From Shigella phage 1b, in the sequence record OR420686: a stretch of 44,698 bases of DNA; one strand, 5' to 3'. The position numbers and the translations under genes were made by a program. The notes beneath the pieces are model-generated. The model had not been told where the DNA came from. It did no database searches and saw only the letters and a program-made list of their open reading frames with translations. Below, piece by piece: positions 1,572-42,869 of the stretch. Within the stretch, counting starts at the first letter, position 1. Every line of letters begins with the position of its first letter.

Positions 1572-3836
1572 ATGAGCTTAATTAAATTCGCTGTAACACG
1601 ACCCGCTAAAAAAGGCGAAAAAGCCAGGGCGGAAAACTTCCAGATGACCACCGAAGAGTTTTTCGAATTTATCAATGACGCGAAAGAAATCTCATCGGTG
1701 CACATCAACAAGACCGAGGATAAAGCCGAGTATGCGCGCCGCAAGCGTAAGGCCGATGGCATCGTAGCGTATACCAGTGACGGCTTACGCCGCAAGACCA
1801 GTGCGGTGGACCGCTCGATCCTGTTCTTCGATATTGACCGTACCGACACCCGCACCCTACGCCGCTGCCGTAAGGCTTTCATCGACGCGGGTCTGGAACA
1901 CGTATTTCACACCACAACCGGCGACCGCCACCCACTGAAAGGCGGCACGCGTTGCGCTCGCTTCCTGGTACTCACTGACAAGCCTGTACCGGCTGAAGAC
2001 CTGGGCCGTGTCCAGTATGCGCTATTACACCAACTTGGGCTGTCAGATGTGGACTTCGACGATTGCACGAAAGACACAAACCGCCTGATGTACCTGCCAC
2101 ACCAGCAGTCTGTAATAAAGTGTCACTACGGCAAACGTGCCCGCGTCCGTCGTCTGCTTCGCCTGGCGGATAAGTTGGGCGTGGAGAAAGAGGAAGTACG
2201 CCGCGAGCTTACCCAGGGCGACGACGCAGTGGCGGACGGGATTCTGGACTGGTGCTTCCAGGCAGGATTCGAGGAGTTATCTTCCGGTCGCGGTTATGAA
2301 GTGCCGTGCCCTAACGAACACCTGCACAGCGGCGAAGGGTCCACCGCCATAATGGTCAAGGATGGTGAGATCCGTTTCAAGTGTATGCACTCCGGCAACG
2401 AGTGTTGCTCGGAGCTGAACAGACACCAGCACCTGGCGCTGCGTCTTATCGGGATTCCGGACCACCTGAACGTCGAGCCACACAATATGTCCCGTAAGCA
2501 AATCGCCGCCATCCTTCCGGGACTGGACGACGAGGAAGTGGAGTCGTGCTATGAACATATTGTTGATGCGGTTGGCGACGGCGAAGAATACGGCGTGTGC
2601 ACCGATGCGGATCTGGATAACGAGCCGGTTGCGCTGTTCAGTAAGCACGACCCGATTATCGAGGGGTTGATTAACTTCAAATCGACCTGGTATATGGCGG
2701 GTGAGTCGAATATCGGTAAGTCTTTCTACGTGCTGGGTCAAATGGGCGCGGTCGCCGCGGGTATTCCGTTCGGCGGCGCGAAGGTCGTCCAGTCTCATTG
2801 CTTCTATTTCGACGCGGAAGGTGGTGAAGCCTCCAACCAGCGCAAAGAAGCATTGCAGATTAAATATGAGCACGACCTCGACAAGCTGCACATTATCGAT
2901 CTGCAATCTCGCGGCTGGGATATCACCAGCAAATCTGGCTTGCGCGAAGTTATCAGCTTTATCAACCGCACGGCTAACGGCGAGCCGGTTGGCCTGGTGG
3001 CGTTCGACTCACTCAACCAGACTGTCGCGCTGCGCTCCGCCGAGGCTAAACCGTTCGACGAGAACAACGCCAGCGATATGGGTGAAGTGGTCAAAGCGCT
3101 GAAGGCCATCGCGGAGAACACAGGCGGCAGTGCGGGCGTCATCCACCACCCGGCGAAAGGTGCAAACGGCAGCAGAACCCCACGCGGGTCCGGCGCGCTG
3201 CATGGTGCTGTCGATTCCGCTTTCTTCCTGGAACAGCCGGACGACAACCAGCCGGGTCAATTGAACCTGTATCACGAAAAGTCACGTAACGGCATCAAGC
3301 AAGCGCCGCGTGGCTTCGTCCTGCTCAAGTGCAAGGTTAAGGTGGATCTCCGCAAGTCAGAGGCGTTCGAGGCGCACCAGTCCACCAGCACCGGGCCAGA
3401 CTTCGGCGACGTGGTTGCCGGTTGGGACGTCAAGCCAATTGCCGCCACACCACGCGACGAGACTCTGTACCTCGTACCGGTCGCCCTGGCGCCGTTCGCC
3501 ATCGAACAGGCGAAGGCAGCAGGCAAGGCCGCGGTTAAGGAAGAGAACACCGCCGGACCGCGCAACGAAAAAGAGAAAGTGCTTTATGCGGCACTGGAAA
3601 AACTGATGGAAGATAACCCGGACCATACTGGATTCAGTAAATCGGCAATTGTCCGCCAGGCTGGGCTGGCAAAAGGTGGCACGTCGACGAAGGCAATCGA
3701 CGATATGGTCGAGCGCGGAGTGATAGGTTTTTACACCGATCCGCACACCGGGGCCATCTATGGGTCGTCTAATTTGGTCATCAAATCGGATATCCCCATC
3801 ACGCTTTCAGCGACCGATGACGATTTAAAAGATTAA
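1572..3836 (+). CDS. primase-polymerase (AEP-like) fused to a RecA-like helicase/ATPase (754 aa)
   Basis: N-terminal ILFFDIDRTD (hhhDhD-type) and FHTTTGDRH motifs; Cys/His zinc-binding cluster CPNEHLHSGEG...CMHSGNECC; Walker A GESNIGKS and Walker B-like LVAFDSLNQ. Confidence 0.75.
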   Translation: MSLIKFAVTRPAKKGEKARAENFQMTTEEFFEFINDAKEISSVHINKTEDKAEYARRKRKADGIVAYTSDGLRRKTSAVDRSILFFDIDRTDTRTLRRCRKAFIDAGLEHVFHTTTGDRHPLKGGTRCARFLVLTDKPVPAEDLGRVQYALLHQLGLSDVDFDDCTKDTNRLMYLPHQQSVIKCHYGKRARVRRLLRLADKLGVEKEEVRRELTQGDDAVADGILDWCFQAGFEELSSGRGYEVPCPNEHLHSGEGSTAIMVKDGEIRFKCMHSGNECCSELNRHQHLALRLIGIPDHLNVEPHNMSRKQIAAILPGLDDEEVESCYEHIVDAVGDGEEYGVCTDADLDNEPVALFSKHDPIIEGLINFKSTWYMAGESNIGKSFYVLGQMGAVAAGIPFGGAKVVQSHCFYFDAEGGEASNQRKEALQIKYEHDLDKLHIIDLQSRGWDITSKSGLREVISFINRTANGEPVGLVAFDSLNQTVALRSAEAKPFDENNASDMGEVVKALKAIAENTGGSAGVIHHPAKGANGSRTPRGSGALHGAVDSAFFLEQPDDNQPGQLNLYHEKSRNGIKQAPRGFVLLKCKVKVDLRKSEAFEAHQSTSTGPDFGDVVAGWDVKPIAATPRDETLYLVPVALAPFAIEQAKAAGKAAVKEENTAGPRNEKEKVLYAALEKLMEDNPDHTGFSKSAIVRQAGLAKGGTSTKAIDDMVERGVIGFYTDPHTGAIYGSSNLVIKSDIPITLSATDDDLKD

Positions 3837-3845
3837 ATTCTGCGC

Positions 3846-3946
3846 GCATTGGTTGCCATTATGGGAATCCCCATATCGGTAAATGATTAAATTTTGCGCG
3901 CATTGGTTGCCATTTTGCGGGCTTTTAGGTGGTCGCATTGGTTGCC
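3846..3946. repeat. three direct copies of GCATTGGTTGCC (3846, 3900, 3935), with an inverted copy at 4218-4229
   Basis: Read directly; the first two copies sit in a ~25 bp direct repeat aaatt(c/t)tgcgcgcattggttgccatt. Confidence 0.7.
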
Positions 3947-3996
3947 GTGTAGTGTAGATATAGTGAATAGTTATGCAATAAAACTGCATAAACTAA

Positions 3997-4098
3997 GCGG
4001 GACAAAAAGCGGGACAAACAAGGAGCGGGACAAAGCGGGACAGCACCCCTGTCCCGCCCCGGATGACGCGGCCTGGCGGGGAGCGGGACAGCGGGACA
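3997..4098. repeat. iteron-like array of GCGGGACA (six direct copies plus one inverted copy forming a palindrome)
   Basis: Copies at about 3997, 4009, 4025, 4035, 4083, 4091; inverted tgtcccgc at 4050. Confidence 0.75.
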
Positions 4099-4103
4099 GC
4101 ACC

Positions 4104-4160
4104 CCAGTCTTTCAGACTAGACGGGGGGTCTGGCACCCCCCTCGTCTGAGACTGCATAAA
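4104..4160. repeat. GC-rich stem-loop element ending in ctgcataa, copy A
   Basis: cagtctttcagactagacgggggg-tctggca-cccccctcgtctgagactgcataa; near-identical copy at 21390-21446. Confidence 0.7.
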
Positions 4161-4313
4161 ATCCAGTATTGCATAACGCACGGCAGCATGATGCGGATTG
4201 CGGTCGTCGATGAACTAGGCAACCAATGCGAGTTGCAGAATGGTGGGTGAGAAATGCAGTTTGCAGTCACAGCAGATAGCGATCAACTTTTTCATGCGCG
4301 TGATTAATATTGG

Positions 4314-4342
4314 TTGCGTTCGGCAAGGCGCCCTGCTATATT
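4314..4342 (+). promoter_or_regulatory. sigma70-like promoter (TTGCGT-N17-TATATT) followed by the conserved block TATATTGGTTGCACACCAAC
   Basis: Hexamers read directly; the same 20-bp block recurs in reverse at about 15527-15546 upstream of the minus-strand gene starting at 15505. Confidence 0.45.
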
Positions 4343-4370
4343 GGTTGCACACCAACATGAGGGCCGAACA

Positions 4371-9934: not shown

Positions 9935-11319
9935 TGCGTAATTATGCGGCAGAACACCGCGCACTGGAGCGCACGATCGCAAAGCGCAACCGACCACCAC
10001 GCCCGACACGCGTTGCGCAGGCCGTCCGCCTGTACCAGCCTGATTGCCTTCCGCACCAGGTCGAACTACTGCGGGACACTAAGACTAAAATCCTCGGCCT
10101 GTGCTCCGGCTTCGGGGGAGGAAAGTCGTGGGTCGCTGCGCGTAAGGTAATCCAGCTTCTGACACTTAACCCCGGTCATGATGGCATCGTTACAGAACCG
10201 ACTATTCCTCTCCTGGTCAAGATCATGTACCCGGAATTGGAAAAGGCTTTCGACGAGGCTGGCTTCCGGTGGAAGTTCAATAAGCAGGACAAGATCTACA
10301 ACGTGCTGGTGAAAGGGAAATGGACCCGCGTTATCTGTGAATCAATGGAGAACTATACCCGCCTGATCGGGGTCAACGCCGCGTGGATTGTTGCCGATGA
10401 GTTCGACACCACGAAACAAGACGTCGCGCTGGCGGCATATCACAAATTGCTCGGTCGTCTGCGTGCGGGCTTCGTCCGCCAGTTCGTCATCGTGTCCACC
10501 CCGGAAGGCTACCGGGCGATGTACCAGATTTTCGAAGTGGAGAAGGATAGCCAGAAACGCTTGATCCGGGCGAAGACCACGGACAACCACCATTTACCGG
10601 CAGACTTTATTGACACGCTGCGCAGTCAGTACCCGGCTAACCTGATTGATGCGTACCTGAACGGCCTGTTTGTTAACCTTACGTCGGGCGCGGTGTACAA
10701 GATGTTTAACCGTGAGGAGAACGCCAGCACCGAAGAAGTGCAGCCGGAAGACACGCTGATTATCGGCATGGACTTTAACGTCACGAAGATGGCGGCGGTC
10801 GTGTACGTCAGACGGCAGCGCGTCACGGAGAACAAGGAGTTCCGCGACGAGATTCACGCCGTGGATGAATTTGTGGACCTGTTTGACACCCCAGCTATGA
10901 TTGAGGCGATCGAGGAGCGCTACCCCGATCATTGTGCTGCCGGTCGTGTTGTCGTTTACCCGGATAGCAGCGGCAAATCCCGCAAGACGGTCAACGCGTC
11001 GTCGTCCGATATCGCACAACTGGAAGATGCGGGCTTCGAGGTGGAGTATGACAGTGTTAACCCGCCTGTGAAAGACCGATTGATCGCGATGAATACGATG
11101 ATGTGTAACTCGAAGGGCGTGCGCCAGTATTTTGTCAACCTGGATAAATGCCCTACACTAGCGAAATGTCTGGAACAGCAGGTGTACGACCTGAAGAAAG
11201 GCGAACCGGATAAAACTGCCGGTGTGGACCACATGAACGATGCCGCGGGCTACCCAATTGCGCACCTGTTCCCTGTGATTCGTCCAATCGCCGTTGTTCC
11301 TACCGTAGATTTCTACTAA
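9934..11319 (+). CDS. terminase large subunit (ATPase plus nuclease)
   Basis: Walker A GLCSGFGGGKS, Walker B WIVADEFD, C-terminal nuclease-like region (IIGMDFN ... YPDSSG). Confidence 0.85.
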   Translation: MRNYAAEHRALERTIAKRNRPPRPTRVAQAVRLYQPDCLPHQVELLRDTKTKILGLCSGFGGGKSWVAARKVIQLLTLNPGHDGIVTEPTIPLLVKIMYPELEKAFDEAGFRWKFNKQDKIYNVLVKGKWTRVICESMENYTRLIGVNAAWIVADEFDTTKQDVALAAYHKLLGRLRAGFVRQFVIVSTPEGYRAMYQIFEVEKDSQKRLIRAKTTDNHHLPADFIDTLRSQYPANLIDAYLNGLFVNLTSGAVYKMFNREENASTEEVQPEDTLIIGMDFNVTKMAAVVYVRRQRVTENKEFRDEIHAVDEFVDLFDTPAMIEAIEERYPDHCAAGRVVVYPDSSGKSRKTVNASSSDIAQLEDAGFEVEYDSVNPPVKDRLIAMNTMMCNSKGVRQYFVNLDKCPTLAKCLEQQVYDLKKGEPDKTAGVDHMNDAAGYPIAHLFPVIRPIAVVPTVDFY

Positions 11320-11330
11320 GGAAACCGACC

Positions 11331-12851
11331 ATGACCGTTAACGTTGACAACCAGCACCCACTTTATGCGCGCATCGCGCCAGAGTGGAAAATGATCCGTG
11401 ACTGCGTAGCGGGGGAGCGCGCCGTTAAGGCGTGCGGCCCCTTGTACCTGCCACACCCCGCAAGCGGCGACACCACCGACCCGAAATCACGGGCACGGTA
11501 TAATGCGTATAAGCAACGTGCGGTATTCCTGAACGCCACCGCCCGCACACTGAATGCACTGTTAGGCGTTGCCTTCGCCAAACCGGTGAGTATGGACCTT
11601 TCCGGGGCGATGGCTGACCTGATTGATGACGTTGACGGCAGCGGTATGCCGCTGGCGCAACTCCTGCGCGGTGCTATGTCTGAAGTTCTGCAATCAGGCC
11701 GTGCCGGTTTTATGGTCGACTACGACCGCCAGGCGCATTTTGACGAACTGGGTAACGTAGTACCGCAGACCGCCGCTGAAATGACAGCACACCGCCCGCT
11801 CATCCGCCTGTATACGGCTGAACAGATCATTAACTGGCGGCAGACCCACGGGGTCGACACGCTAATCGTGCTGAAGGAGACGGACGAAATCAGCACCGAA
11901 GACCCGGACGACTTCGCAAACCACGAAGTAACTATCTGGACTGAGCTTCGCATGATTTCAGGAAAGGCCCACGCCCGCCGCTGGTTTTACAACGCGGACA
12001 CGTCCGAGGTGCAAATGGACTTGCCGCGTGGATTCACCCGCACCGATCTTGTACCGCTGGTGGATGCCTCCGGTAATGCGCTAACTCAACTGCCATTTTG
12101 CTGGTGTGGCGCGGTGGACAACAACGCGACACCGGACGCCGCACCACTGGCGGATATCGCGTCCATCAACATTAAGCACTACAACGCCGAAGCCGACGTC
12201 GCCGAGATTGCGCACATCGTGGGGCAACCTACCCTCATTGCGACCGGTCTGACTCAATCATGGGCGGACAAGAACCTGAAAGGCGGCATCGCGCTCGGGG
12301 CAACTAAGGGCGTTATCCTGGGCCAGAACATGGACGCCAAACTGCTTCAGGCGGAGGAGCGCAACTTGTCTGTTGCACTGTGTGAGCGCCGCGAATTGCA
12401 AATGGCTAAACTGGGCGCGGCCCTGGTCGAGAAGGGGACCGCACCTAAGACGGCAACCGAGGCGGCCTACGATGCGCAGACAGATAACAGTATCCTGTCA
12501 CTGATTGCCGGTAACGTTGAGAAGGCTTTCAACCGTGCGCTGCAAATCGTCAAGCTGTTCACTGGCGACACCGCAGATCAACGCGTAACGCTGAATAAGT
12601 TCTACACCGAAATCACGGTTGACGCACAGCTTATGACCGCAATGATGTCGGGGGTGCAGACCGGTACTATCCGTCTGGCTGACTTTATCAAGTGGATGAT
12701 GGCCCAGGGCGTTATTGACGACTCGCAAACCGTCGAGCAGGTGGAAGACGAACTGCGAAATCAGAATCCATTGCCTCAAATGTCCCCTGATGCGGTAGAA
12801 TCTACCGAAGAAGACCCGGACAAGGTAGCGGACAATGGCGAAGACAATTAA
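11331..12851 (+). CDS. portal protein
   Basis: 506 aa ORF directly after the large terminase; AAGGAA RBS; acidic C-terminus; assigned by position and size. Confidence 0.6.
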   Translation: MTVNVDNQHPLYARIAPEWKMIRDCVAGERAVKACGPLYLPHPASGDTTDPKSRARYNAYKQRAVFLNATARTLNALLGVAFAKPVSMDLSGAMADLIDDVDGSGMPLAQLLRGAMSEVLQSGRAGFMVDYDRQAHFDELGNVVPQTAAEMTAHRPLIRLYTAEQIINWRQTHGVDTLIVLKETDEISTEDPDDFANHEVTIWTELRMISGKAHARRWFYNADTSEVQMDLPRGFTRTDLVPLVDASGNALTQLPFCWCGAVDNNATPDAAPLADIASINIKHYNAEADVAEIAHIVGQPTLIATGLTQSWADKNLKGGIALGATKGVILGQNMDAKLLQAEERNLSVALCERRELQMAKLGAALVEKGTAPKTATEAAYDAQTDNSILSLIAGNVEKAFNRALQIVKLFTGDTADQRVTLNKFYTEITVDAQLMTAMMSGVQTGTIRLADFIKWMMAQGVIDDSQTVEQVEDELRNQNPLPQMSPDAVESTEEDPDKVADNGEDN

Positions 12852-15505: not shown

Positions 15506-15540
15506 CTTGTTTTCCTTCATATCTCTGTTGGTGTGCAACC

Positions 15541-15570
15541 AATATAGCGCAACCAACTCCCGCAGTGCAA
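15541..15570 (-). promoter_or_regulatory. sigma70-like promoter (TTGCAC-N18-TATATT) for the minus-strand two-gene unit
   Basis: Read on the reverse complement; shares the block TATATTGGTTGCACACCAAC with the promoter at 4314-4342. Confidence 0.45.
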
Positions 15571-20408: not shown

Positions 20409-20432
20409 GGGGCCAGCACGGCCCCTTTTTAT
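20409..20432 (+). terminator. rho-independent terminator
   Basis: ggggccagcacggcccc followed by TTTTT. Confidence 0.65.
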
Positions 20433-20446
20433 TGGAGAATTACATA

Positions 20447-20809
20447 ATGGCTAAATCACCACTCTTCACACTTGACCCTAAACCGACCTTTAAGCTGCCG
20501 ATTGAGATCCCGCGCCCTGGAGAAAACGAACCGGGCAAAATGACGTTTACCGTCCGTCACCGCCCGATCGACGAATTTTCGCAGACCATGCAGGACACTG
20601 AACGCAAGCTGTCGGAATATGACGACAACGACCCGGAAGGCTTTAACGTTATGGTCGAGGCCATCATGCACGTCGCTGAAGGCTGGAATCTGCCAGATGA
20701 ATTTAACGCGGAGAACGTCCGCCGCCTGGTGGTTAACTACCCTCGCGCGTTCGGTGTGTTCCACACGTCGTACTATCTCGAACTGATGGGACTGCGTGAA
20801 AAAAACTAA
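20447..20809 (+). CDS. tail assembly chaperone (G-like)
   Basis: Small acidic protein between the major tail and tape measure genes; ends at the slippery heptamer A_AAA_AAC. Confidence 0.6.
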   Translation: MAKSPLFTLDPKPTFKLPIEIPRPGENEPGKMTFTVRHRPIDEFSQTMQDTERKLSEYDDNDPEGFNVMVEAIMHVAEGWNLPDEFNAENVRRLVVNYPRAFGVFHTSYYLELMGLREKN

Positions 20810-21126
20810 TTGAGGCGGCGCGACGCTTTTATGGCCCGCCGCCACCCTCCGAAGATTTAGCCGCAAGTTTATGGGGTGCGGCCCCCGAAGATGTTTGCCC
20901 GCCGGTTGCGCTATGGCCCGACAACGCGAAGATCGTCGCAGTCTTCACAGATTGCGCCACGCAATGGCGCACCGGATTCGGTGGCGCATACGGCATCGAC
21001 TACGGTGTTCTGGAATGGCTATTTAAGATGCACGGCATCGAAAACGCGCAACGTGCGTTTAAAGATATCAAGCTAATGGAACGAATCGCGCTTGATGAAA
21101 TGGCGCAGCAGAACCACGCACAGTGA
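20447..21126 (+). CDS. tail assembly chaperone frameshift product (GT-like), via programmed -1 frameshift near 20800-20806
   Basis: Slippery A_AAA_AAC in the zero frame at the last codons of the G-like ORF; the -1 frame is open for about 107 codons to the TGA at 21124-21126 and encodes a T-domain-like sequence (LWPDNAKIVAVFTDCATQWRTGFGGAYGIDYGVLEWLF...). Confidence 0.55.
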
Positions 21127-21127
21127 A

Positions 21128-21386
21128 GCGGGACAAAACGGGACGTCCCGCTTTGTCCCGCCTCTGTAAAACTGCATATCTAATCACTTCCATTGCATAA
21201 ACCAAAAGCGGGACAGGCGGGACGTCCCGTTTTGTCCCACCCCATAAATGTGCATATCTATTCGCATTTCGTGCATAAAACAAACGGGACAAAAAGCGGG
21301 ACAGACCGGGGGCGGGACAAAGCGGGACAGCACCCCGTCCCCGCCAGTGCTGCCGCTGGTTTCAGCCGATCGGGACAGGCGGGACA
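21128..21386. repeat. iteron-like array of GCGGGACA/CGGGACA repeats (about 10 copies, including two ~34-bp palindromic units centred on GGGACGTCCC)
   Basis: Palindromes at about 21128-21162 and 21208-21240; direct copies at about 21284, 21294, 21312, 21322, 21371, 21379. Confidence 0.75.
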
Positions 21387-21389
21387 AAG

Positions 21390-21446
21390 CCCAGTCTTTC
21401 AGACTAGACGGGGGTCAATGGCCCCCCTCGTCTGAGACTGCATAAT
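21390..21446. repeat. GC-rich stem-loop element ending in ctgcataa, copy B
   Basis: cagtctttcagactagacggggg-tcaatgg-cccccctcgtctgagactgcataa; near-identical to 4104-4160. Confidence 0.7.
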
Positions 21447-21508
21447 GTTTGTTTTAAATTCGCTGATACAATGAACGACGGCAACTGCATAAAAAGGGGG
21501 ACTGCATA

Positions 21509-24151
21509 ATGGCAGATCAGGCAGCGGGCATCACGCTCAAGGCGGACGTCGCGCAAATTAAAACGGCTAATACTGTGCTGGACACATTTGCGCAGAAATC
21601 CGAGAACACAGAACAGAAAGTAAAGAAATTAAACGACACACTCGGCAAGTCGAAAAAGGTTACTGGCGACGCCGCGGGCGGAATGGAAAAATTAGCGACT
21701 GAATCGCAGCGCGCCGCCGACGGCATGACGAAGCAAGAGCGACTAGCCAGCCGATTAGGCATGTCTACCAAAAACCTGGGATTCGCATCGCGGAACGCGG
21801 CATTCCAGTTACAGGATATCGCGGTTACGCTTGAGATGGGTATGCCGGTGCACCGCGTTATGCTTCAGCAGTTACCACAGCTTACTGGGGCGTTCGGTGG
21901 ATTTGGTAACACGCTGCGTTATGTTGCGGGCTTCCTCGGTCCGGTAGGGATCGGCATTGCAGCACTAACGGCAACGTTAGGCGTAGGAGTGGCGGTTACG
22001 TCCCGTGCCGAAAACCAGGTAGCAGCGCTTAACAAGACGCTGGCGCTGTCGGGTAACATTTCCGGACTCACAGCAAACCAGATCCTGGTGCTATCCGAGA
22101 ACGCCGAGCGCATGGGCGGGTCATTCCGCAAGACGCGTGACACAATCCAGGCGCTGGCGGCGGCGGGTGTGAAAGCTGGTGCTGACTTCGGCGCGCTGGC
22201 GAAGGTAGTTAATGACTTTGCGAAGGCGTCTAATCAGCCGATTTCGGACGTGGTTGAATCAATCTCAAAATTGTCGAACGACCCGGTCGGCGGACTGCGT
22301 GCGCTGGCGGATAAGTATCATGTCGTGACCGAAGCGCAGATCCAGCAGGTGCAATCGCTTGTAAATATGGGGCGTGAAACGGACGCGGTGGCGCTGGCTA
22401 ACAAAACCGCCGCTGCGTCGTTTACCACTATGACCAACGATATTAAGTCCAACATGGGTACGCTTGAACGGTCGATGAACGTCGTCACATCGGCAGCTAA
22501 ATCTATGTGGGATGCCATCCTGGATGTTGGGCGCGCGCAGTCCTCGAATGATTCCGAGATGAAAGCGCGTGAGTCCTTGCAGCGCATGACCACGGCTTAC
22601 TATGCCGAGATGAAAGCGGTAAACGCTGCCGGTGGGGTGATGACCGAAGCGCAGAAAGCGCGTATTAACATGCTTTACAGCGAACTGGTCGCCCAGGAGA
22701 AGGTGGTGGCGTCGCTTACTCTGCGCAACCGTGCCGAGCGAGACAACGCAAGTGCCGCTGACGAAGCAGCAAAGGCGAACGAGGAGGCCAACCGCACCGC
22801 CCGCGACCGCGCCGCGTTTGAGAAGGAGTACGCAACCAACGCTAAGCGGCGAGCCGACGAGATCGCCCGCCTCAATTTGCTGAATAAGCGCGGTGTTATT
22901 AACGAGAAAGAACTAGCCGAGGCGGTGAAGCAGGTCAACGAACGCTACAAAGACCCCGCCCCCAAAAAGGCGGCGGCAGTTCGCGTCGATGCCGGTGTCA
23001 AAATGCTGGAGGTCGCACGGAGTGAACTGGCCCAGCTTAAAGCGTCCGGAAAGCAAATCGAGTCAAACTCCGCAACACAGACCCGAGCGCAACGCGCTCA
23101 ATCAGCCCTTAACAAGCTGATCGCGGATCATGAACAGTTAATCGCAGCGAGCAAAGAAAGGGCGCTTACGGCGGCAGAAAAGCAGCAAATGGCGGAGTTC
23201 GAGTCGGTTAAATCTGTACGCGAGCAGATCGTAGAAGAAGCCAAATTGCTGGACGCGAAAGAGAAGCAGATCAAGGCACACGCCCAGGTCGAGGCCTTCA
23301 TCAAGAACCAGAACGCCGAGCTAAAAGCCACCGCGGCGGGCTATGCGCTTTCTACTCGCGAAGCGGCTAACCTGCGCGAAGAATTGCAGCTAATTGACCG
23401 CCTTCAGCGTGCCGGTGCTAACGATACCGATATCGACAAGGCGGTGTCTAAGCTGCGTGAAGTTCAGGACGCACAGACCGGTGCTAACGCCTCATTATGG
23501 GATGGATTCAGTCGCGGGCTTCGCGATAGCGTTGATGAAATGGGTAACGGCTATACGCAGATGACGTCACTCACAAAATTCACGTTCGGCGCTATGCAGG
23601 ACACGATGACCGAGTTTTTCGAGACTGGCAAGCTGAACGCAAAGGATATGGTTAAATCCATCCTGAGCGAGTTAATCAAGTTGGCTACCTCGCAGGCATT
23701 CAAGTCCATCATTAGCGCTTTCGGCGGTGACGGCGGCAAAAACGGATTGTTCGGCGCTATCTTCTCCGGCCTCACTAAGAATGCGGACGGCGGAGCGTAC
23801 GCAGGAGGCAATCTCGCGGCCTATTCTGGGAAAGTGGTAAGCCAGCCAACCTTTTTCAGTTATGGTGTCCAGGCGTTCGCTAAGGGCGCAGGATTGATGG
23901 GGGAGGCTGGGCCTGAGGCCATCATGCCGCTGAAGCGCGGGCCAGACGGTAAACTGGGCGTTGCCGCTGCCGGAGGGGTCGGTGGGATGATTGTAACGAC
24001 CAACGTTAACATGGGGACCGGTAAGACGGATACCAGTGTTAGCGGACCGGACCCGCGCACCGCTCAGGCGTTCGGAAAGCAAATCACCGAGTCGGTCAAG
24101 GCCGAGATCGTGAAGGCGACGAAACCGGGTGGTGTACTTTACAAACGATGA
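21509..24151 (+). CDS. tail tape measure protein
   Basis: 880 aa; Ala/Gln/Lys-rich helical sequence with Gly-rich hydrophobic segments; canonical position after the chaperone genes. Confidence 0.8.
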   Translation: MADQAAGITLKADVAQIKTANTVLDTFAQKSENTEQKVKKLNDTLGKSKKVTGDAAGGMEKLATESQRAADGMTKQERLASRLGMSTKNLGFASRNAAFQLQDIAVTLEMGMPVHRVMLQQLPQLTGAFGGFGNTLRYVAGFLGPVGIGIAALTATLGVGVAVTSRAENQVAALNKTLALSGNISGLTANQILVLSENAERMGGSFRKTRDTIQALAAAGVKAGADFGALAKVVNDFAKASNQPISDVVESISKLSNDPVGGLRALADKYHVVTEAQIQQVQSLVNMGRETDAVALANKTAAASFTTMTNDIKSNMGTLERSMNVVTSAAKSMWDAILDVGRAQSSNDSEMKARESLQRMTTAYYAEMKAVNAAGGVMTEAQKARINMLYSELVAQEKVVASLTLRNRAERDNASAADEAAKANEEANRTARDRAAFEKEYATNAKRRADEIARLNLLNKRGVINEKELAEAVKQVNERYKDPAPKKAAAVRVDAGVKMLEVARSELAQLKASGKQIESNSATQTRAQRAQSALNKLIADHEQLIAASKERALTAAEKQQMAEFESVKSVREQIVEEAKLLDAKEKQIKAHAQVEAFIKNQNAELKATAAGYALSTREAANLREELQLIDRLQRAGANDTDIDKAVSKLREVQDAQTGANASLWDGFSRGLRDSVDEMGNGYTQMTSLTKFTFGAMQDTMTEFFETGKLNAKDMVKSILSELIKLATSQAFKSIISAFGGDGGKNGLFGAIFSGLTKNADGGAYAGGNLAAYSGKVVSQPTFFSYGVQAFAKGAGLMGEAGPEAIMPLKRGPDGKLGVAAAGGVGGMIVTTNVNMGTGKTDTSVSGPDPRTAQAFGKQITESVKAEIVKATKPGGVLYKR

Positions 24152-39566: not shown

Positions 39567-41858
39567 CTACTTGCGGTAGCGATACATGCAATCGCCCTCT
39601 GCGGCAAGCGGGAAGCCTTTCGCCCAAACAGGCAGGTCGCACATCAGCGCGCATAGCTCCTCGGTCGTGTAGTCGTCAGTATCCGGCACTTCGGTTATCA
39701 ATTCATCGTGCACTGACAGTACGATCTCATAGCCCGCGGCTTCAACACCCGGCATGGACCATGCGAGAATATCGCGACACAGCGCCTGCACGATGTTCTC
39801 CGTCAGTTTGCCGCCGTAGGTATACTGGAAGCCCCACTGGCGCGTAGTCTGATTCTCGCCCTGGTATTTGATGCGGGTACTTGTGCGCTTCTTGCCGGTG
39901 TCTTCGTCGATCTCAGTCGTGACAGACAGCGCGATGCCGGGATAGCTCATGATGCGCCCCGACGGCAACTCAATTTTCAACCACCACCCTGCGGCGTTCG
40001 GGTCGTCGCGCTCCTCGTCGAAGGTTGGGTCATGCTTCGACTTCGTGCGGACTATCTTGAGCGCTTTCTTACCATCCGGGCGAACGTTCGCACCCGCCCA
40101 GTATGCTTTGCCAGGATTGCGGATTGCGCAGAGCACCGCGTCTTCCAGTTCGGCCCAAAATGCAACCGTCATCGGGTGAGACTCACGCCACATGCGTTTG
40201 ATCGCGTCACACGTCAACCACACGTTTTTCGGCAGTATGTAAGTTGGGCGCTCGTCTTTCTTGCCAGGCTTCGGCGGGCGCTTGGCTTCGTTAATGCGGG
40301 CATACTCATAACCACGTTTCGCCGCGGCCCAAATATGATCGGGGAATGTGCCCTTCATGACGTCCGCCATCGCATACAGGTCGAGGCCCAGGTTTTTAGC
40401 AAACTGCAGGAACGCTGCAACACCGCCACCATAGCCCAACCCCAATTCGCACGCCTTACCAATCTGGCGCAAGTCTTTGCGGTTGGCTTTGATGTATTCC
40501 GGGTCGAGGCCAAACATCTTACCGGCAGTCTCACAATAGATATCACGACCGGCCTTAAACACCATTAGCGCGGTTTTCTCGCCAGCGATCCAGGCAAGCC
40601 CGCGACCTTCCACGTTAGAATAGTCAGCTACAACAAACTTCTTGCCCTTAGCCGGAATAATGCACCCGCGAACGGTCGAGGCCGTTAACTTCGATATGTC
40701 ATACGCCCAGTGCGCTGTCCCGCGTAACAGGGAGTTGATGCCGTTGGTGAGCATGTGCGACCGGACCCAAAAAGAAACGTCGCTCTCTCCCTCGCGGCGC
40801 TTAATCTTCCCTTCGTGGTCGTCGCTATACTCGCCGCGCGCCAGGTTTTGCGGCTGGAAGCCTTTACCCGCCCAGCGTAGCGTGCGTTTTGCCCCACCAT
40901 ACTGGAGACACCCACGACGGCGACCATCGGCGGATAAGCCATTCACGAGCGGATTATACTTAGTCGATGCCGTTGATGACGCACCGAGGCGCATCTCGAT
41001 AAGCACTTTGCCTTCGTCGGGGAAGTCCGGGTCTTCCAGCAGGTCGTTAAGTGTGGATTTCTGCGCGTTGTGGATTGTGAACGCAGGCGCCAGGTCGCGC
41101 AGCGCTGGCAGGAAGTCATTGCCGGTCAGCTTACCGCCGAAGCGCTCCCATGCTTCTTCCTTCAATTCTTCCTTATGCGCCTGCACCGCTTTGATCGCGG
41201 CGTTCGCCAGGTCAACGTCCACATAGAAGCCGCGGTCGTTGATCAACTGGTCAATAAGCAGGATTTCATCTTCCTTCGGCGTGTTGCCCCAGTCCGGTAT
41301 ACGCCAATAGACTTCCCTCATCGCGATGATATCCAGCGCGGCATAGCGCAGGAATTTAGCCCATTCGTCAGGGTGCGTCTCGCGGGTGTAGCGGCGAATT
41401 TTGTATGTCTTAGGGGTAGGCTTACAGAAGCGTTTGATCAGCGCCTTGCCCGCCTTATCCTTCGCGTGCTCTGCGTCAACGCCCAGCACCTGGCACTGCA
41501 TATCGAGGCTACCAGGAAGCGCGTGGCGAAAGGCCATAATCATGGTATCTTCAATCTGGCTTACCGGCAGGTCGATTCCCCACTTCTCACGGATAACCAG
41601 GCGGTCAAACAGGAGGCCGTTAGCCATCACGATTTTTGCTTTCTTGCGGGATACCTGGCGGAGCGCCTTGCGCAGTTCACGCGGCATTGTTGGGGATTCA
41701 GTGGCGTCCCATGTCTGCACGCGGCCCTCGTCGATGGCGTATGTGCAAATCATAATCTCGGTTGTTGGGTGCTCTGCGTAGGCGTACGCCCCTACTTTCT
41801 TCAGGTCCACCCCGCTAAATGTCTCGGTATCGAGAAATAGGCGTTCGAAGTCTTTCAT
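39567..41858 (-). CDS. family A DNA polymerase (Pol I-like) with 3'-5' exonuclease domain
   Basis: N-terminal exonuclease motif FLDTETF; polymerase motifs including RQIGKACELGLGYGGG and VLSVHDELITEV; GAGGA RBS. Confidence 0.9.
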   Translation of the reverse strand: MKDFERLFLDTETFSGVDLKKVGAYAYAEHPTTEIMICTYAIDEGRVQTWDATESPTMPRELRKALRQVSRKKAKIVMANGLLFDRLVIREKWGIDLPVSQIEDTMIMAFRHALPGSLDMQCQVLGVDAEHAKDKAGKALIKRFCKPTPKTYKIRRYTRETHPDEWAKFLRYAALDIIAMREVYWRIPDWGNTPKEDEILLIDQLINDRGFYVDVDLANAAIKAVQAHKEELKEEAWERFGGKLTGNDFLPALRDLAPAFTIHNAQKSTLNDLLEDPDFPDEGKVLIEMRLGASSTASTKYNPLVNGLSADGRRRGCLQYGGAKRTLRWAGKGFQPQNLARGEYSDDHEGKIKRREGESDVSFWVRSHMLTNGINSLLRGTAHWAYDISKLTASTVRGCIIPAKGKKFVVADYSNVEGRGLAWIAGEKTALMVFKAGRDIYCETAGKMFGLDPEYIKANRKDLRQIGKACELGLGYGGGVAAFLQFAKNLGLDLYAMADVMKGTFPDHIWAAAKRGYEYARINEAKRPPKPGKKDERPTYILPKNVWLTCDAIKRMWRESHPMTVAFWAELEDAVLCAIRNPGKAYWAGANVRPDGKKALKIVRTKSKHDPTFDEERDDPNAAGWWLKIELPSGRIMSYPGIALSVTTEIDEDTGKKRTSTRIKYQGENQTTRQWGFQYTYGGKLTENIVQALCRDILAWSMPGVEAAGYEIVLSVHDELITEVPDTDDYTTEELCALMCDLPVWAKGFPLAAEGDCMYRYRK

Positions 41859-42083: not shown

Positions 42084-42869
42084 TTAACGGCGGCGACGTT
42101 TGCGTGGTGCTTCGTCTTCGTCGTCGTCCTCATCATCTTCGTCATCGCGTGGCTTACGACGTTTACGAGGTTTCTCGTCTTCGTCTTCGTCATCGTCATC
42201 GCGGCGCTTGGATTTTTTGGACTTGCGCGGTTTGTCGTCTTCGTCATCGTCATCACGACGTTTTGACTTTTTGGACTTACGCGGGCTTTCGTCTTCGTCA
42301 TCGTTGTCCAGGTCTTCGTCGGAACATGAAGACCCGCCACCGCCGAAGGCTTCGCCGTCTTCACGGAATCGCAGACCCAGCAAGCCCGCCCCAAGACCCT
42401 TGCCGTTGGTATTGTTCCACGCCCAAATATCGAGGGACACGTTGCAATAACAACCGGAATAGATCTCCTGGCCTTCGATCTCGTCGCCTTCTACGGTCAG
42501 ACCTTGTTCCGTCTGCTTCTCGCCCAGTGACGTTTGGATGTTAGGCTGTTTGAACGATTTAGCGTTGATGTACAACATGCCTTCAAATTCTTCGGTTACT
42601 TCGTCACGCTCGTCACCGTCGCGAACTGCGCATTCCTTAGAATCCTGGGCGTAGTGGCGGTCCATCCACTTATCGGCATTCTTCTCGGATTTCAGCTTGT
42701 CGGTGAGCACTGCGCGCGCTGCCGCTTCCACTTTGTCCACCTGCGGATCTTCTTTATCAAGAAGAATCACGGCGCGGTATGCCGGTTTTTGTCCATCCTG
42801 TTTAGGGGTGTCACGTTCCCAAATTTTCAGGAAACATACGCGCACATTTTTCAGGTTGACTTTCGCCAT
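42084..42869 (-). CDS. ssDNA-binding-like protein (DUF2815/T7 gp2.5-like) with a long repetitive acidic/basic C-terminal tail
   Basis: Track ORF trimmed to MAKVNLKNVRVCF (GAGGAG RBS); N-terminus typical of phage gp2.5-like SSBs that pair with a DUF2800-type exonuclease; C-terminal 90 aa are alternating DDDDEDE and KSKKSKRR tracts. Confidence 0.5.
   Translation of the reverse strand: MAKVNLKNVRVCFLKIWERDTPKQDGQKPAYRAVILLDKEDPQVDKVEAAARAVLTDKLKSEKNADKWMDRHYAQDSKECAVRDGDERDEVTEEFEGMLYINAKSFKQPNIQTSLGEKQTEQGLTVEGDEIEGQEIYSGCYCNVSLDIWAWNNTNGKGLGAGLLGLRFREDGEAFGGGGSSCSDEDLDNDDEDESPRKSKKSKRRDDDDEDDKPRKSKKSKRRDDDDEDEDEKPRKRRKPRDDEDDEDDDEDEAPRKRRRR

Follow-up and report, generated by a model that had tools for sequence, protein, structure and literature searches.

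A 44,698 nt stretch of Shigella phage 1b (sequence record OR420686), referred to here as the window, contains a non-coding gap at 21127-21508 (region A) between the genes for the tail assembly chaperone and the tape measure protein, and a second, similar locus (region B) downstream of the primase-helicase gene. Both loci are built around a module of about 175 bp in which copies of the motif CGGGACA stand next to a conserved hairpin, and a replication-initiator (origin-type) site accords with the evidence better than a generic regulatory or RNA module does. Iterons are short repeated sites about one helical turn apart, and with moderate confidence we read regions A and B as iteron-type sites for a replication initiator, with the origin at region B and, at region A, either a second origin or a replication fork barrier that is specific to the lineage. 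Two comparisons were decisive: the finding of similar arrays in association with helicase genes in unrelated phages, and the finding of related genera that have the same architecture with a different repeated 8-mer. The anatomy of the two loci, their pattern of conservation, their association with a particular gene and the co-variation of motif with lineage are direct observations and are described first.

Over the 1.2 kb surrounding region A, identity with other Dhillonvirus genomes, among them Escherichia phages KS_S9, UHP65 and SSL-2009a, is 92-93%; 158 phage records in GenBank match, and on this similarity the window is assigned to Dhillonvirus, i.e. the HK578/SO-1-like coliphages. Region A itself runs from the stop codon of the chaperone T extension (21124-21126) to the tape measure gene. 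It contains nine exact copies of CGGGACA, where an earlier sequence-only reading had counted about ten, and GGGAC occurs 16 times on its two strands, where the rest of the genome would predict 0.35. Across the whole window there are 22 copies of CGGGACA (6.5 expected; 0 of 100 shuffled sequences reached 22), clustered as nine copies in 21129-21386 and seven in 3998-4098; for the octamer GCGGGACA, seven of the 17 genome copies sit in region A and another seven in region B. The two palindromes of about 34 bp described in the same reading were recovered at 21127-21160 (two forward and two reverse GGGAC(A) motifs, GCGGGACAAAACGGGAC followed by GTCCCGCTTTGTCCCGC; RNA fold -25.6 kcal/mol) and at 21207-21240 (GCGGGACAGGCGGGAC followed by GTCCCGTTTTGTCCCAC; -19.5 kcal/mol), both centred on GGGACGTCCC.

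These palindromes are followed on the + strand by module A (21272-21446), which alignment identifies as a 175 bp copy of 3985-4160 and which consists, in order, of GCATAAA, four direct motifs, a degenerate inverted motif, a spacer of a type specific to region A, two direct motifs, the hairpin and CTGCATAA. The four direct CGGGACA motifs begin at 21285, 21297, 21313 and 21323 (21285-21329, + strand; spacings 12, 16 and 10 bp), and the further two, at 21371 and 21380 (21371-21386, + strand), lie immediately 5' of the hairpin; motif spacings in regions A and B range from 8 to 16 bp. Folding predicts a bulged hairpin of about 20 bp (about 50 nt) at 21392-21440 on the + strand, composed of an outer stem (CAGUCU/AGACUG), a middle stem (AGAC/GUCU), an apical stem of five to six G residues paired with five to six C residues, and a variable loop of 6-8 nt. 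Downstream of it lie an AT-rich run of only about 15-18 bp (21446-21463; weaker in region B), an extended -10-like element, TGATACAAT (21464-21472, + strand), which is present in all 14 Dhillonvirus copies of region A displayed and is one of only two extended -10-like matches genome-wide, and ACGGCAAC (21478-21485, + strand), a copy of a dispersed polar 8-mer at the same relative place as 4180-4187 in region B. The region ends with two TGCATAA motifs on either side of the Shine-Dalgarno sequence AAGGGGGA (21486-21511, + strand). As had been noticed from the sequence, the last of these (21503-21509) overlaps the tape measure start codon (21509-21511), its final A being the A of the ATG. TGCATAA occurs 14 times in the window (6.2 expected), and nine of the 14 copies fall within the two loci.

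Module B (3985-4160, + strand) is the paralogous copy, and its alignment with 21272-21446 extends over about 175 bp at about 80% identity, well beyond the short motifs. The proposal that one composite element, stem-loop included, recurs at two distant loci is thus borne out, one locus lying in the replication region and the other in the tail operon. The hairpin of module B (4105-4154, + strand) has arms identical to those of module A and differs in its loop (UCUGGCA, against UCAAUGG in region A), and the two fold with almost the same energy (-28.4 kcal/mol in region B and -27.6 in region A; z about -4). To its 3' side lies ACGGCAGC (4180-4187, + strand), where CACGGCA[AG]CA is kept in three related genera. 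In the rest of region B (3826-4357) three direct copies and one inverted copy of GCGCATTGGTTGCC flank the module, and two further ATTGGTTGC sites lie at the promoter of the gene that follows; region A lacks this second class of motif. An inverted repeat, TTATGCA-N7-TGCATAA (3971-3991), lies at the left border of module B. Next to it, GTGAATAGTTATGCA is kept both in the HK578 lineage, within region A, and in Salmonella phage FSL SP-031, and a dimeric protein may use the TGCATAA motifs as half-sites. Region B begins 150 bp past the primase-helicase stop codon, and region A lies 17 kb away. The pairing of the two loci is not new, since it is already known from database annotation: the record of Sodalis phage SO-1 (GQ502199) has repeat_region features 'region A' (11214-11597) and 'region B' (40178-40657), which are said there to resemble each other and to comprise direct, inverted and palindromic repeats, and which are orthologous to the loci examined here, module B forming part of the second. 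A literature search covering Dhillonvirus repeats, promoters and origins, the motif and the SO-1 genome yielded nothing relevant to the two regions.

The search of related phages suggested in the sequence-only reading showed that the module is carried by all 158 GenBank Dhillonviruses, at 332 places in total, or about two per genome. In IMG/VR, 14 of 16 contigs have exactly two copies, one other being cut by the contig end and one having a divergent second copy, and the exact hairpin core was found only in Dhillonvirus-like contigs, twice per genome. When 30 copies of the module (14 from region A and 16 from region B) were aligned, GCATAAA and, downstream of it, all six direct CGGGACA motifs were fixed in position and sequence; the spacers vary freely, the central 35 bp or so falls into distinct A and B types, and the hairpin arms are invariant, whereas the loop between them exists in eight or more versions. 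The A and B loci of different genomes share variants of the hairpin loop and of the final two motifs, which argues for exchange between the copies and for their functional equivalence. In the HK578 lineage palindrome 2 has been rebuilt as one forward and two reverse motifs, so that the motif is retained for its own sake, in either orientation, and not just for pairing. A divergent lineage, with a helicase only 68% identical, has both copies, region A again lying directly before the tape measure gene, and maintains the hairpin fold by means of one compensatory change, in which UAGAC has G in place of A and the GUCU that pairs with it has C in place of U. The module gave no BLAST match in E. coli genomes and plasmids and is therefore not a host or plasmid element.

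The chaperone-tape measure junction had been called unusually long for a phage of this kind, and a survey of IMG/VR with the chaperone T domain agrees. The gap measures 357-394 bp in all 14 Dhillonvirus contigs with complete flanks. In contigs with a T domain of 31-46% identity, about 60 in number, it is 60 bp or less, mostly between -1 and +12, with three exceptions that hold a small gene and not repeats. In Edwardsiella phage eiAU the corresponding gap is reported as about 870 bp. On these comparisons, the gap occupied by region A is a lineage-specific insertion.

The first of the two decisive comparisons came from an unbiased scan of IMG/VR for the pattern of two adjacent motifs (GCGGGACA, 1-6 nt, CGGGAC). 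It returned many single chance matches along with unrelated contigs in which CGGGAC/GTCCCG occurs 9-16 times per 350 bp, and in these contigs the dense arrays lie at, or overlap, the 3' end of a same-strand open reading frame (ORF) of 380-730 aa. Nine of ten such array-adjacent ORFs have an AAA_25 helicase domain according to Pfam, seven of them with a primase domain as well (Prim-Pol or Toprim plus a zinc ribbon), and the Dhillonvirus primase-helicase belongs to the same AAA_25 family. We then used a hidden Markov model built from the array-associated helicase domains and defined a dense locus as one with at least nine motifs per 350 bp. Among 16 dense loci outside Dhillonvirus, 14 have an AAA_25-type ORF ending -224 to +67 bp from the array, whereas the 71 loci of low, chance-level density have such an ORF anywhere in only two cases and adjacent in none. 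The arrays (IMG/VR loci L221, L266, L258, L235, L229/L261, L218, L305, L304, L302, L283, L237, L290 and L247) are laid out as in Dhillonvirus, with direct motifs, a small GC-rich palindrome or AT-rich stretch, and inverted motifs, and in some of them the AT-rich stretch is long. The same layout is present in GenBank, at 3080-3230 of Roseobacter phage CRP-701 (PV211009; L309), where no origin is annotated and where the motif is CGGACA; its primase-helicase is 52% identical to that of a contig using CGGGACA. A C-terminal motif, T-[KR]-[KR]-K-A-F-x-R-A, occurs in many of the array-associated proteins of the unrelated contigs. In the searchable literature we found no description of a class of origins with CGGGAC arrays at primase-AAA_25 helicase genes.

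The second comparison was provided by a search with the full-length helicase, which identified full-length orthologues of 44-49% identity in Salmonella phage FSL SP-031 and two metagenomic lineages; a search with the C-terminal 200 aa alone gave no matches. All three lineages share a gene order of helix-turn-helix gene, helicase gene, a non-coding gap of 290-650 bp and small genes, and CACGGCA[AG]CA lies in the gap of each, yet the repeated 8-mer differs: it is GGGGGAGA in FSL SP-031 and ACTCGCAA or GCTGCCAAC in the others. In FSL SP-031 the full architecture can be followed, from a left border with GTGAATAGTTATGCA through direct repeats, an inverted copy and further repeats to a hairpin (-20.8 kcal/mol) that occupies the same place as in Dhillonvirus but is unrelated in sequence. 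The repeat thus differs with the lineage of the putative initiator, GGGACA being used in Dhillonvirus and the lineage with a 68%-identical helicase, and other 8-mers at 44-49% identity.

The 754 aa primase-helicase (1572-3836, + strand) is the proposed binder of GCGGGACA. Its helicase core is highly conserved in the protein alignment, and the last 100 residues or so diverge most among lineages with different repeats. For this C-terminal part AlphaFold predicts a helix-strand-helix-helix-hairpin arrangement (pLDDT 77-89), with a winged helix at residues ~666-737 (3567-3782, + strand), and the best Foldseek matches are all winged-helix DNA-binding domains (MarR, IclR, histone H1 and ORC2), none of them at E <= 0.001. 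The predicted recognition helix begins with TSTK, STSK or TNTT in the GGGACA lineages and with KRRP, DRYK or NYKK in the others. Invariant repeats roughly in helical phase, their location at the putative initiator gene, their dependence on lineage and a predicted DNA-binding domain together make region B most likely the origin. Region A, which contains the complete module and two extra palindromic units, would then most likely serve the same protein as a second site.

We infer the identity of the binding protein, and everything that concerns replication itself, from these patterns, and our working model is as follows. The phage initiator would bind the GCGGGACA octamers, most probably through the C-terminal winged helix of the primase-helicase, and initiator molecules would coat the direct and inverted motifs. 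This coating would favour melting or extrusion of the neighbouring conserved hairpin and the short AT-rich stretch, after which the hexameric helicase would load and priming would begin nearby. The candidate start site is the conserved ACGGCA[AG]C located 20-32 bp 3' of the hairpin. Region A would have arisen when a copy of the module was inserted at the chaperone-tape measure junction in an ancestor of Dhillonvirus, and would have been retained by selection, to act either as a second origin or, in the manner proposed for SPP1 oriR, as a barrier to which the initiator binds and at which forks stall.

Several observations weigh against this interpretation. Neither locus has a long AT-rich unwinding element beyond the short run after the hairpin; region A is remote from the initiator gene; and both copies are co-oriented with transcription and trailed by a -10-like element, an arrangement that fits a promoter equally well. 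The Dhillonvirus C-terminus has no significant BLASTP similarity to the C-termini of the array-associated proteins in unrelated contigs, and two hhalign runs gave E ~0.07, so that the shared motif may reflect coincidence or convergence. The binder could, moreover, be a different protein, the 109 aa helix-turn-helix protein encoded upstream of the helicase gene (1232-1561, + strand), although this protein is more likely to bind another motif, TTGGTTGC, than GCGGGACA. GC skew tracks gene orientation only and carries no information on the origin. DnaA boxes (TTATNCACA-like) are not enriched, with 24 sites at one mismatch or fewer genome-wide (26.8 expected), two in region A and none in region B. 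Finally, because -10-like elements are present at both loci, and the gene block in which they lie has many strong terminators and promoter-like matches no more numerous than chance, a promoter dependent on an activator or antiterminator, and an RNA acting in cis, each retain some probability.

The first of these alternatives, which is possible though we consider it unlikely, is that the module controls transcription, the GCGGGACA arrays being activator sites, or a loading site for an antiterminator, at a weak promoter. That promoter would be TGATACAAT in region A and, in region B, CATAAC/CATAAT on the 3' side of the hairpin. The lysis and structural genes would be turned on from region B. From region A, transcription of the tape measure and distal tail genes would begin anew beyond the strong intrinsic terminator at 20409-20430 (+ strand), which stands behind the major tail protein gene 700 bp upstream. 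Region A lies between this terminator and the tape measure gene, directly before the latter, and both copies of the module are co-oriented with a single rightward block of 32 kb that contains nine strong + strand intrinsic terminators (6273, 7509, 9274, 14361, 17579, 20409, 24158, 30342 and 33267), three of which have in common a stem GGGGCC...GGCCCC followed by TTTTT. Promoter-like matches in this block are at chance level (17 against 13.4 expected, and 14 against 13.9), and with at least nine such terminators this suggests regulated read-through or antitermination. The constancy of TGATACAAT in the displayed copies of region A, and a -10-like hexamer followed by CACGGCA[AG]CA after the hairpin in four genera, would also be accounted for. 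However, arrays in unrelated phages follow the 3' ends of primase-helicase genes and often overlap coding sequence, which is typical of origins and not of late promoters; the related genera run the same tail operon without any gap; and the recognizable promoters of the phage use a different motif, TTGGTTGC. A sigma-70 consensus scan found no promoter at either locus. A scan of both loci for terminators found none on the + strand, and its sole match in 21127-21508 was on the - strand, at 21229-21209. The 3' flanks are CUGCAUAA and GCCUCUGU, and no GC-rich hairpin with a U-run directly behind it was found there, although the WFI record labels palindrome 1 as a terminator.

A function of the transcribed hairpin in cis, with or without the G-rich repeats, as a put/nut-like antitermination site, an RNase III processing or stabilizing site or a small RNA, is improbable in our judgement. 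It would explain why the same hairpin occurs in one early and one late transcript, in both cases on the sense strand and upstream of several terminators, an anatomy compatible with put/nut. The hairpin is stable, bulged and asymmetric, with the bulges themselves conserved; the divergent lineage preserves the structure with its one compensatory change; and FSL SP-031 has an unrelated hairpin at the same place. The sequence-only reading had proposed a dedicated module for either protein binding or RNA structure, and it is the former part that has gained support, from the invariant motif positions, the co-variation with helicase lineage and the arrays beside unrelated primase-helicase genes. For the RNA part, the predicted fold is stable, the reverse strand folds equally well (-27.4 kcal/mol) and covariation is almost absent, because the arms are sequence-invariant. 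In the formal covariation test one divergent copy was misaligned by MAFFT, and hairpin variants were folded one at a time. An Rfam 15 scan of the whole window found no match in or near either locus, even at E <= 1. The retention of the motif in both orientations is better suited to recognition of double-stranded DNA, and an RNA role leaves the association of arrays with primase-helicase genes unexplained. A promoter or RNA role could nevertheless coexist with origin function.

That region A is a selfish or decaying duplication without a function of its own, whether a miniature mobile element or a recombination scar, is very improbable. It is lineage-specific, occupies a junction that all other relatives keep tight and has degenerate parts such as the inverted motif of module A. 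However, nearly all of the 158 GenBank genomes (the 332 places noted above) and 14 of the 16 IMG/VR contigs have exactly two copies, and these are fixed in position; two copies are present even in the lineage with the 68%-identical helicase (the second being divergent); motif positions and hairpin arms are invariant amid varying bases; and there are no empty sites, terminal inverted repeats, target duplications or copies in host genomes or plasmids. It is hardly credible that the gap encodes one or two small proteins, for although ORFs of 65-80 aa exist on both strands and hypothetical proteins are annotated here in PaulFeyerabend (11275-11391 and 11539-11703) and several other records, the longest frame varies in strand, frame and length between genomes, four overlapping frames are equally 'conserved' with an amino acid identity (56-95%) not above that of the DNA, one match is split by a frameshift, and the peptides are low-complexity read-outs of the repeats. 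No single reading frame is conserved among relatives, in agreement with the earlier view of the gap as non-coding, and the annotated proteins are very likely spurious.

The closest parallel to two origin-type loci of this kind is with Bacillus phage SPP1, in which oriL, within gene 38, and oriR have the same organization and are both bound by gp38 (PMC6316719; PMC3485210). SPP1 oriR is a non-coding segment that interrupts the late structural genes (PMC6316719), and gp38 bound there has been proposed to stall the fork and switch replication from the theta to the concatemeric mode (PMC6316719; PMC3485210). The likeness lies in the presence of two distant, similarly organized repeat loci, one at the initiator gene and the other in a non-coding island among late genes; the SPP1 loci consist of direct repeats along with an AT-rich stretch. 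The systems differ in their motifs and in their proteins, since SPP1 uses gp38, a separate loader and a DnaB-type helicase where Dhillonvirus has a single protein combining primase, AAA_25 helicase and winged helix, and only Dhillonvirus has a conserved hairpin of about 50 nt and a site at the chaperone-tape measure junction; binding and origin activity in Dhillonvirus are putative.

Other replicons offer partial parallels. In satellite phage P4 the alpha primase-helicase, which has a C-terminal DNA-binding domain, recognizes octamer iterons at two loci, ori and crr. P4 thus resembles Dhillonvirus, as interpreted here, in combining one primase-helicase with octamer iterons at two separate loci, but alpha belongs to a different helicase superfamily, and the P4 loci are about 4.5 kb apart and both in the replication region. 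The pri-rep-ori of SaPI, Streptococcus phage Sfi21 and the O/ori system of lambda have an origin just downstream of, or inside, the initiator gene; they share with Dhillonvirus short non-coding direct and inverted repeats beside the gene for the binder, which change with the initiator allele, but have a single origin, and their repeats and proteins are unrelated to those of Dhillonvirus. The putL/putR sites of HK022 and nutL/nutR of lambda are similar in placing the same stem-loop element at two distant transcription units, upstream of terminators, but act as RNA, lack DNA motif arrays in both orientations and have no association with replication genes; the Dhillonvirus hairpin, for its part, matches no Rfam family.

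The gene layout of the window was taken from the well-annotated relatives PaulFeyerabend, SO-1 and WFI. The leftward replication block extends over 33.3-44.7 kb and 0-1.06 kb, and the rightward block (1.2-33.3 kb) begins with the small helix-turn-helix protein and the primase-helicase and continues with small genes, lysis, terminase, head and tail genes. The genes flanking region A are those that had been named from the sequence, namely the chaperone G/GT frameshift pair upstream (20447-21126, + strand, with G at 20447-20809 and T ending at 21126; Phage_TAC_4 in the WFI annotation), which has a slippery A AAA AAC for -1 frameshifting at 20800-20806, and the 880 aa tape measure ORF downstream (21509-24151, + strand). 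Tandem repeats of about 60 nt rich in TTCGTC/GTCATC lie within minus-strand ORFs at 42094-42320 and 539-690, where they would encode repetitive, charged, low-complexity protein segments.

Two further dispersed motifs were encountered, along with a repeat that is present in two copies. TTGGTTGC occurs at 22 sites against two expected, mostly paired and intergenic, e.g. at 3849, 3903, 3938, 4219(-), 4310, 4341, 15535(-), 34516(-)/34528, 36189(-)/36206(-) and 42926/42942; it overlaps sigma-70-like promoters such as TTGCAA-N18-TATAGT (34537-34508) and resembles an operator for a phage regulator, which may be the 109 aa helix-turn-helix protein. The 23 nt sequence GCTATATTGGTTGCACACCAACA forms a perfect inverted repeat whose halves are 11 kb apart (4335-4357 and 15526-15548), and each half lies upstream of a gene that is on the same strand as itself; the second serves a minus-strand gene for an Nmad5-domain protein embedded in the structural operon. 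In the divergent lineage (L205; contig IMGVR_UViG_3300045988_050407, ~2400-3000, minus strand) a small reverse-strand gene lies immediately upstream of region A, with a promoter-like sequence containing TTGGTTGC and a product with a hydrophobic N-terminus, which suggests that region A tolerates, or attracts, moron insertion. The 8-mer ACGGCA[AG]C is present in 57 copies (4.8 expected; 13 at most in shuffled sequences), 43 on the + and 14 on the - strand. These copies have no flanking consensus, and 53 of the 57 are inside genes, in two different reading frames. Its density of about 1-1.4 per kb is equal in other Dhillonviruses and three related genera, and it is rare in unrelated phages. One copy lies shortly after each hairpin (4180-4187 and 21478-21485), and the motif may be a priming signal or some other polar DNA signal.

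A broader proposal would be that CGGGAC arrays at primase-AAA_25 genes constitute a widespread class of origins, that the tail-operon copy found only in Dhillonvirus is a second origin or fork barrier controlling the switch to concatemers, and that ACGGCA[AG]C is the cognate, unusually long primase site; we regard this combination as distinctly speculative and rather unlikely to hold in full. The association of CGGGAC-type arrays with primase-helicase genes nevertheless supplies a simple rule by which origins may be predicted in phage contigs from metagenomes. Dhillonviruses are common coliphages in use for defence-system and phage-therapy work, and we know of no study of their replication and gene control. 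If the origin is region B, and region A is a fork barrier or a second origin, sites that are safe for phage engineering can be told from unsafe ones, because the 'empty' gap of 380 bp would not be free space, and cloned fragments of either locus may titrate the initiator and block infection. The Dhillonviruses would then possess a Gram-negative counterpart of the oriL/oriR system of SPP1.

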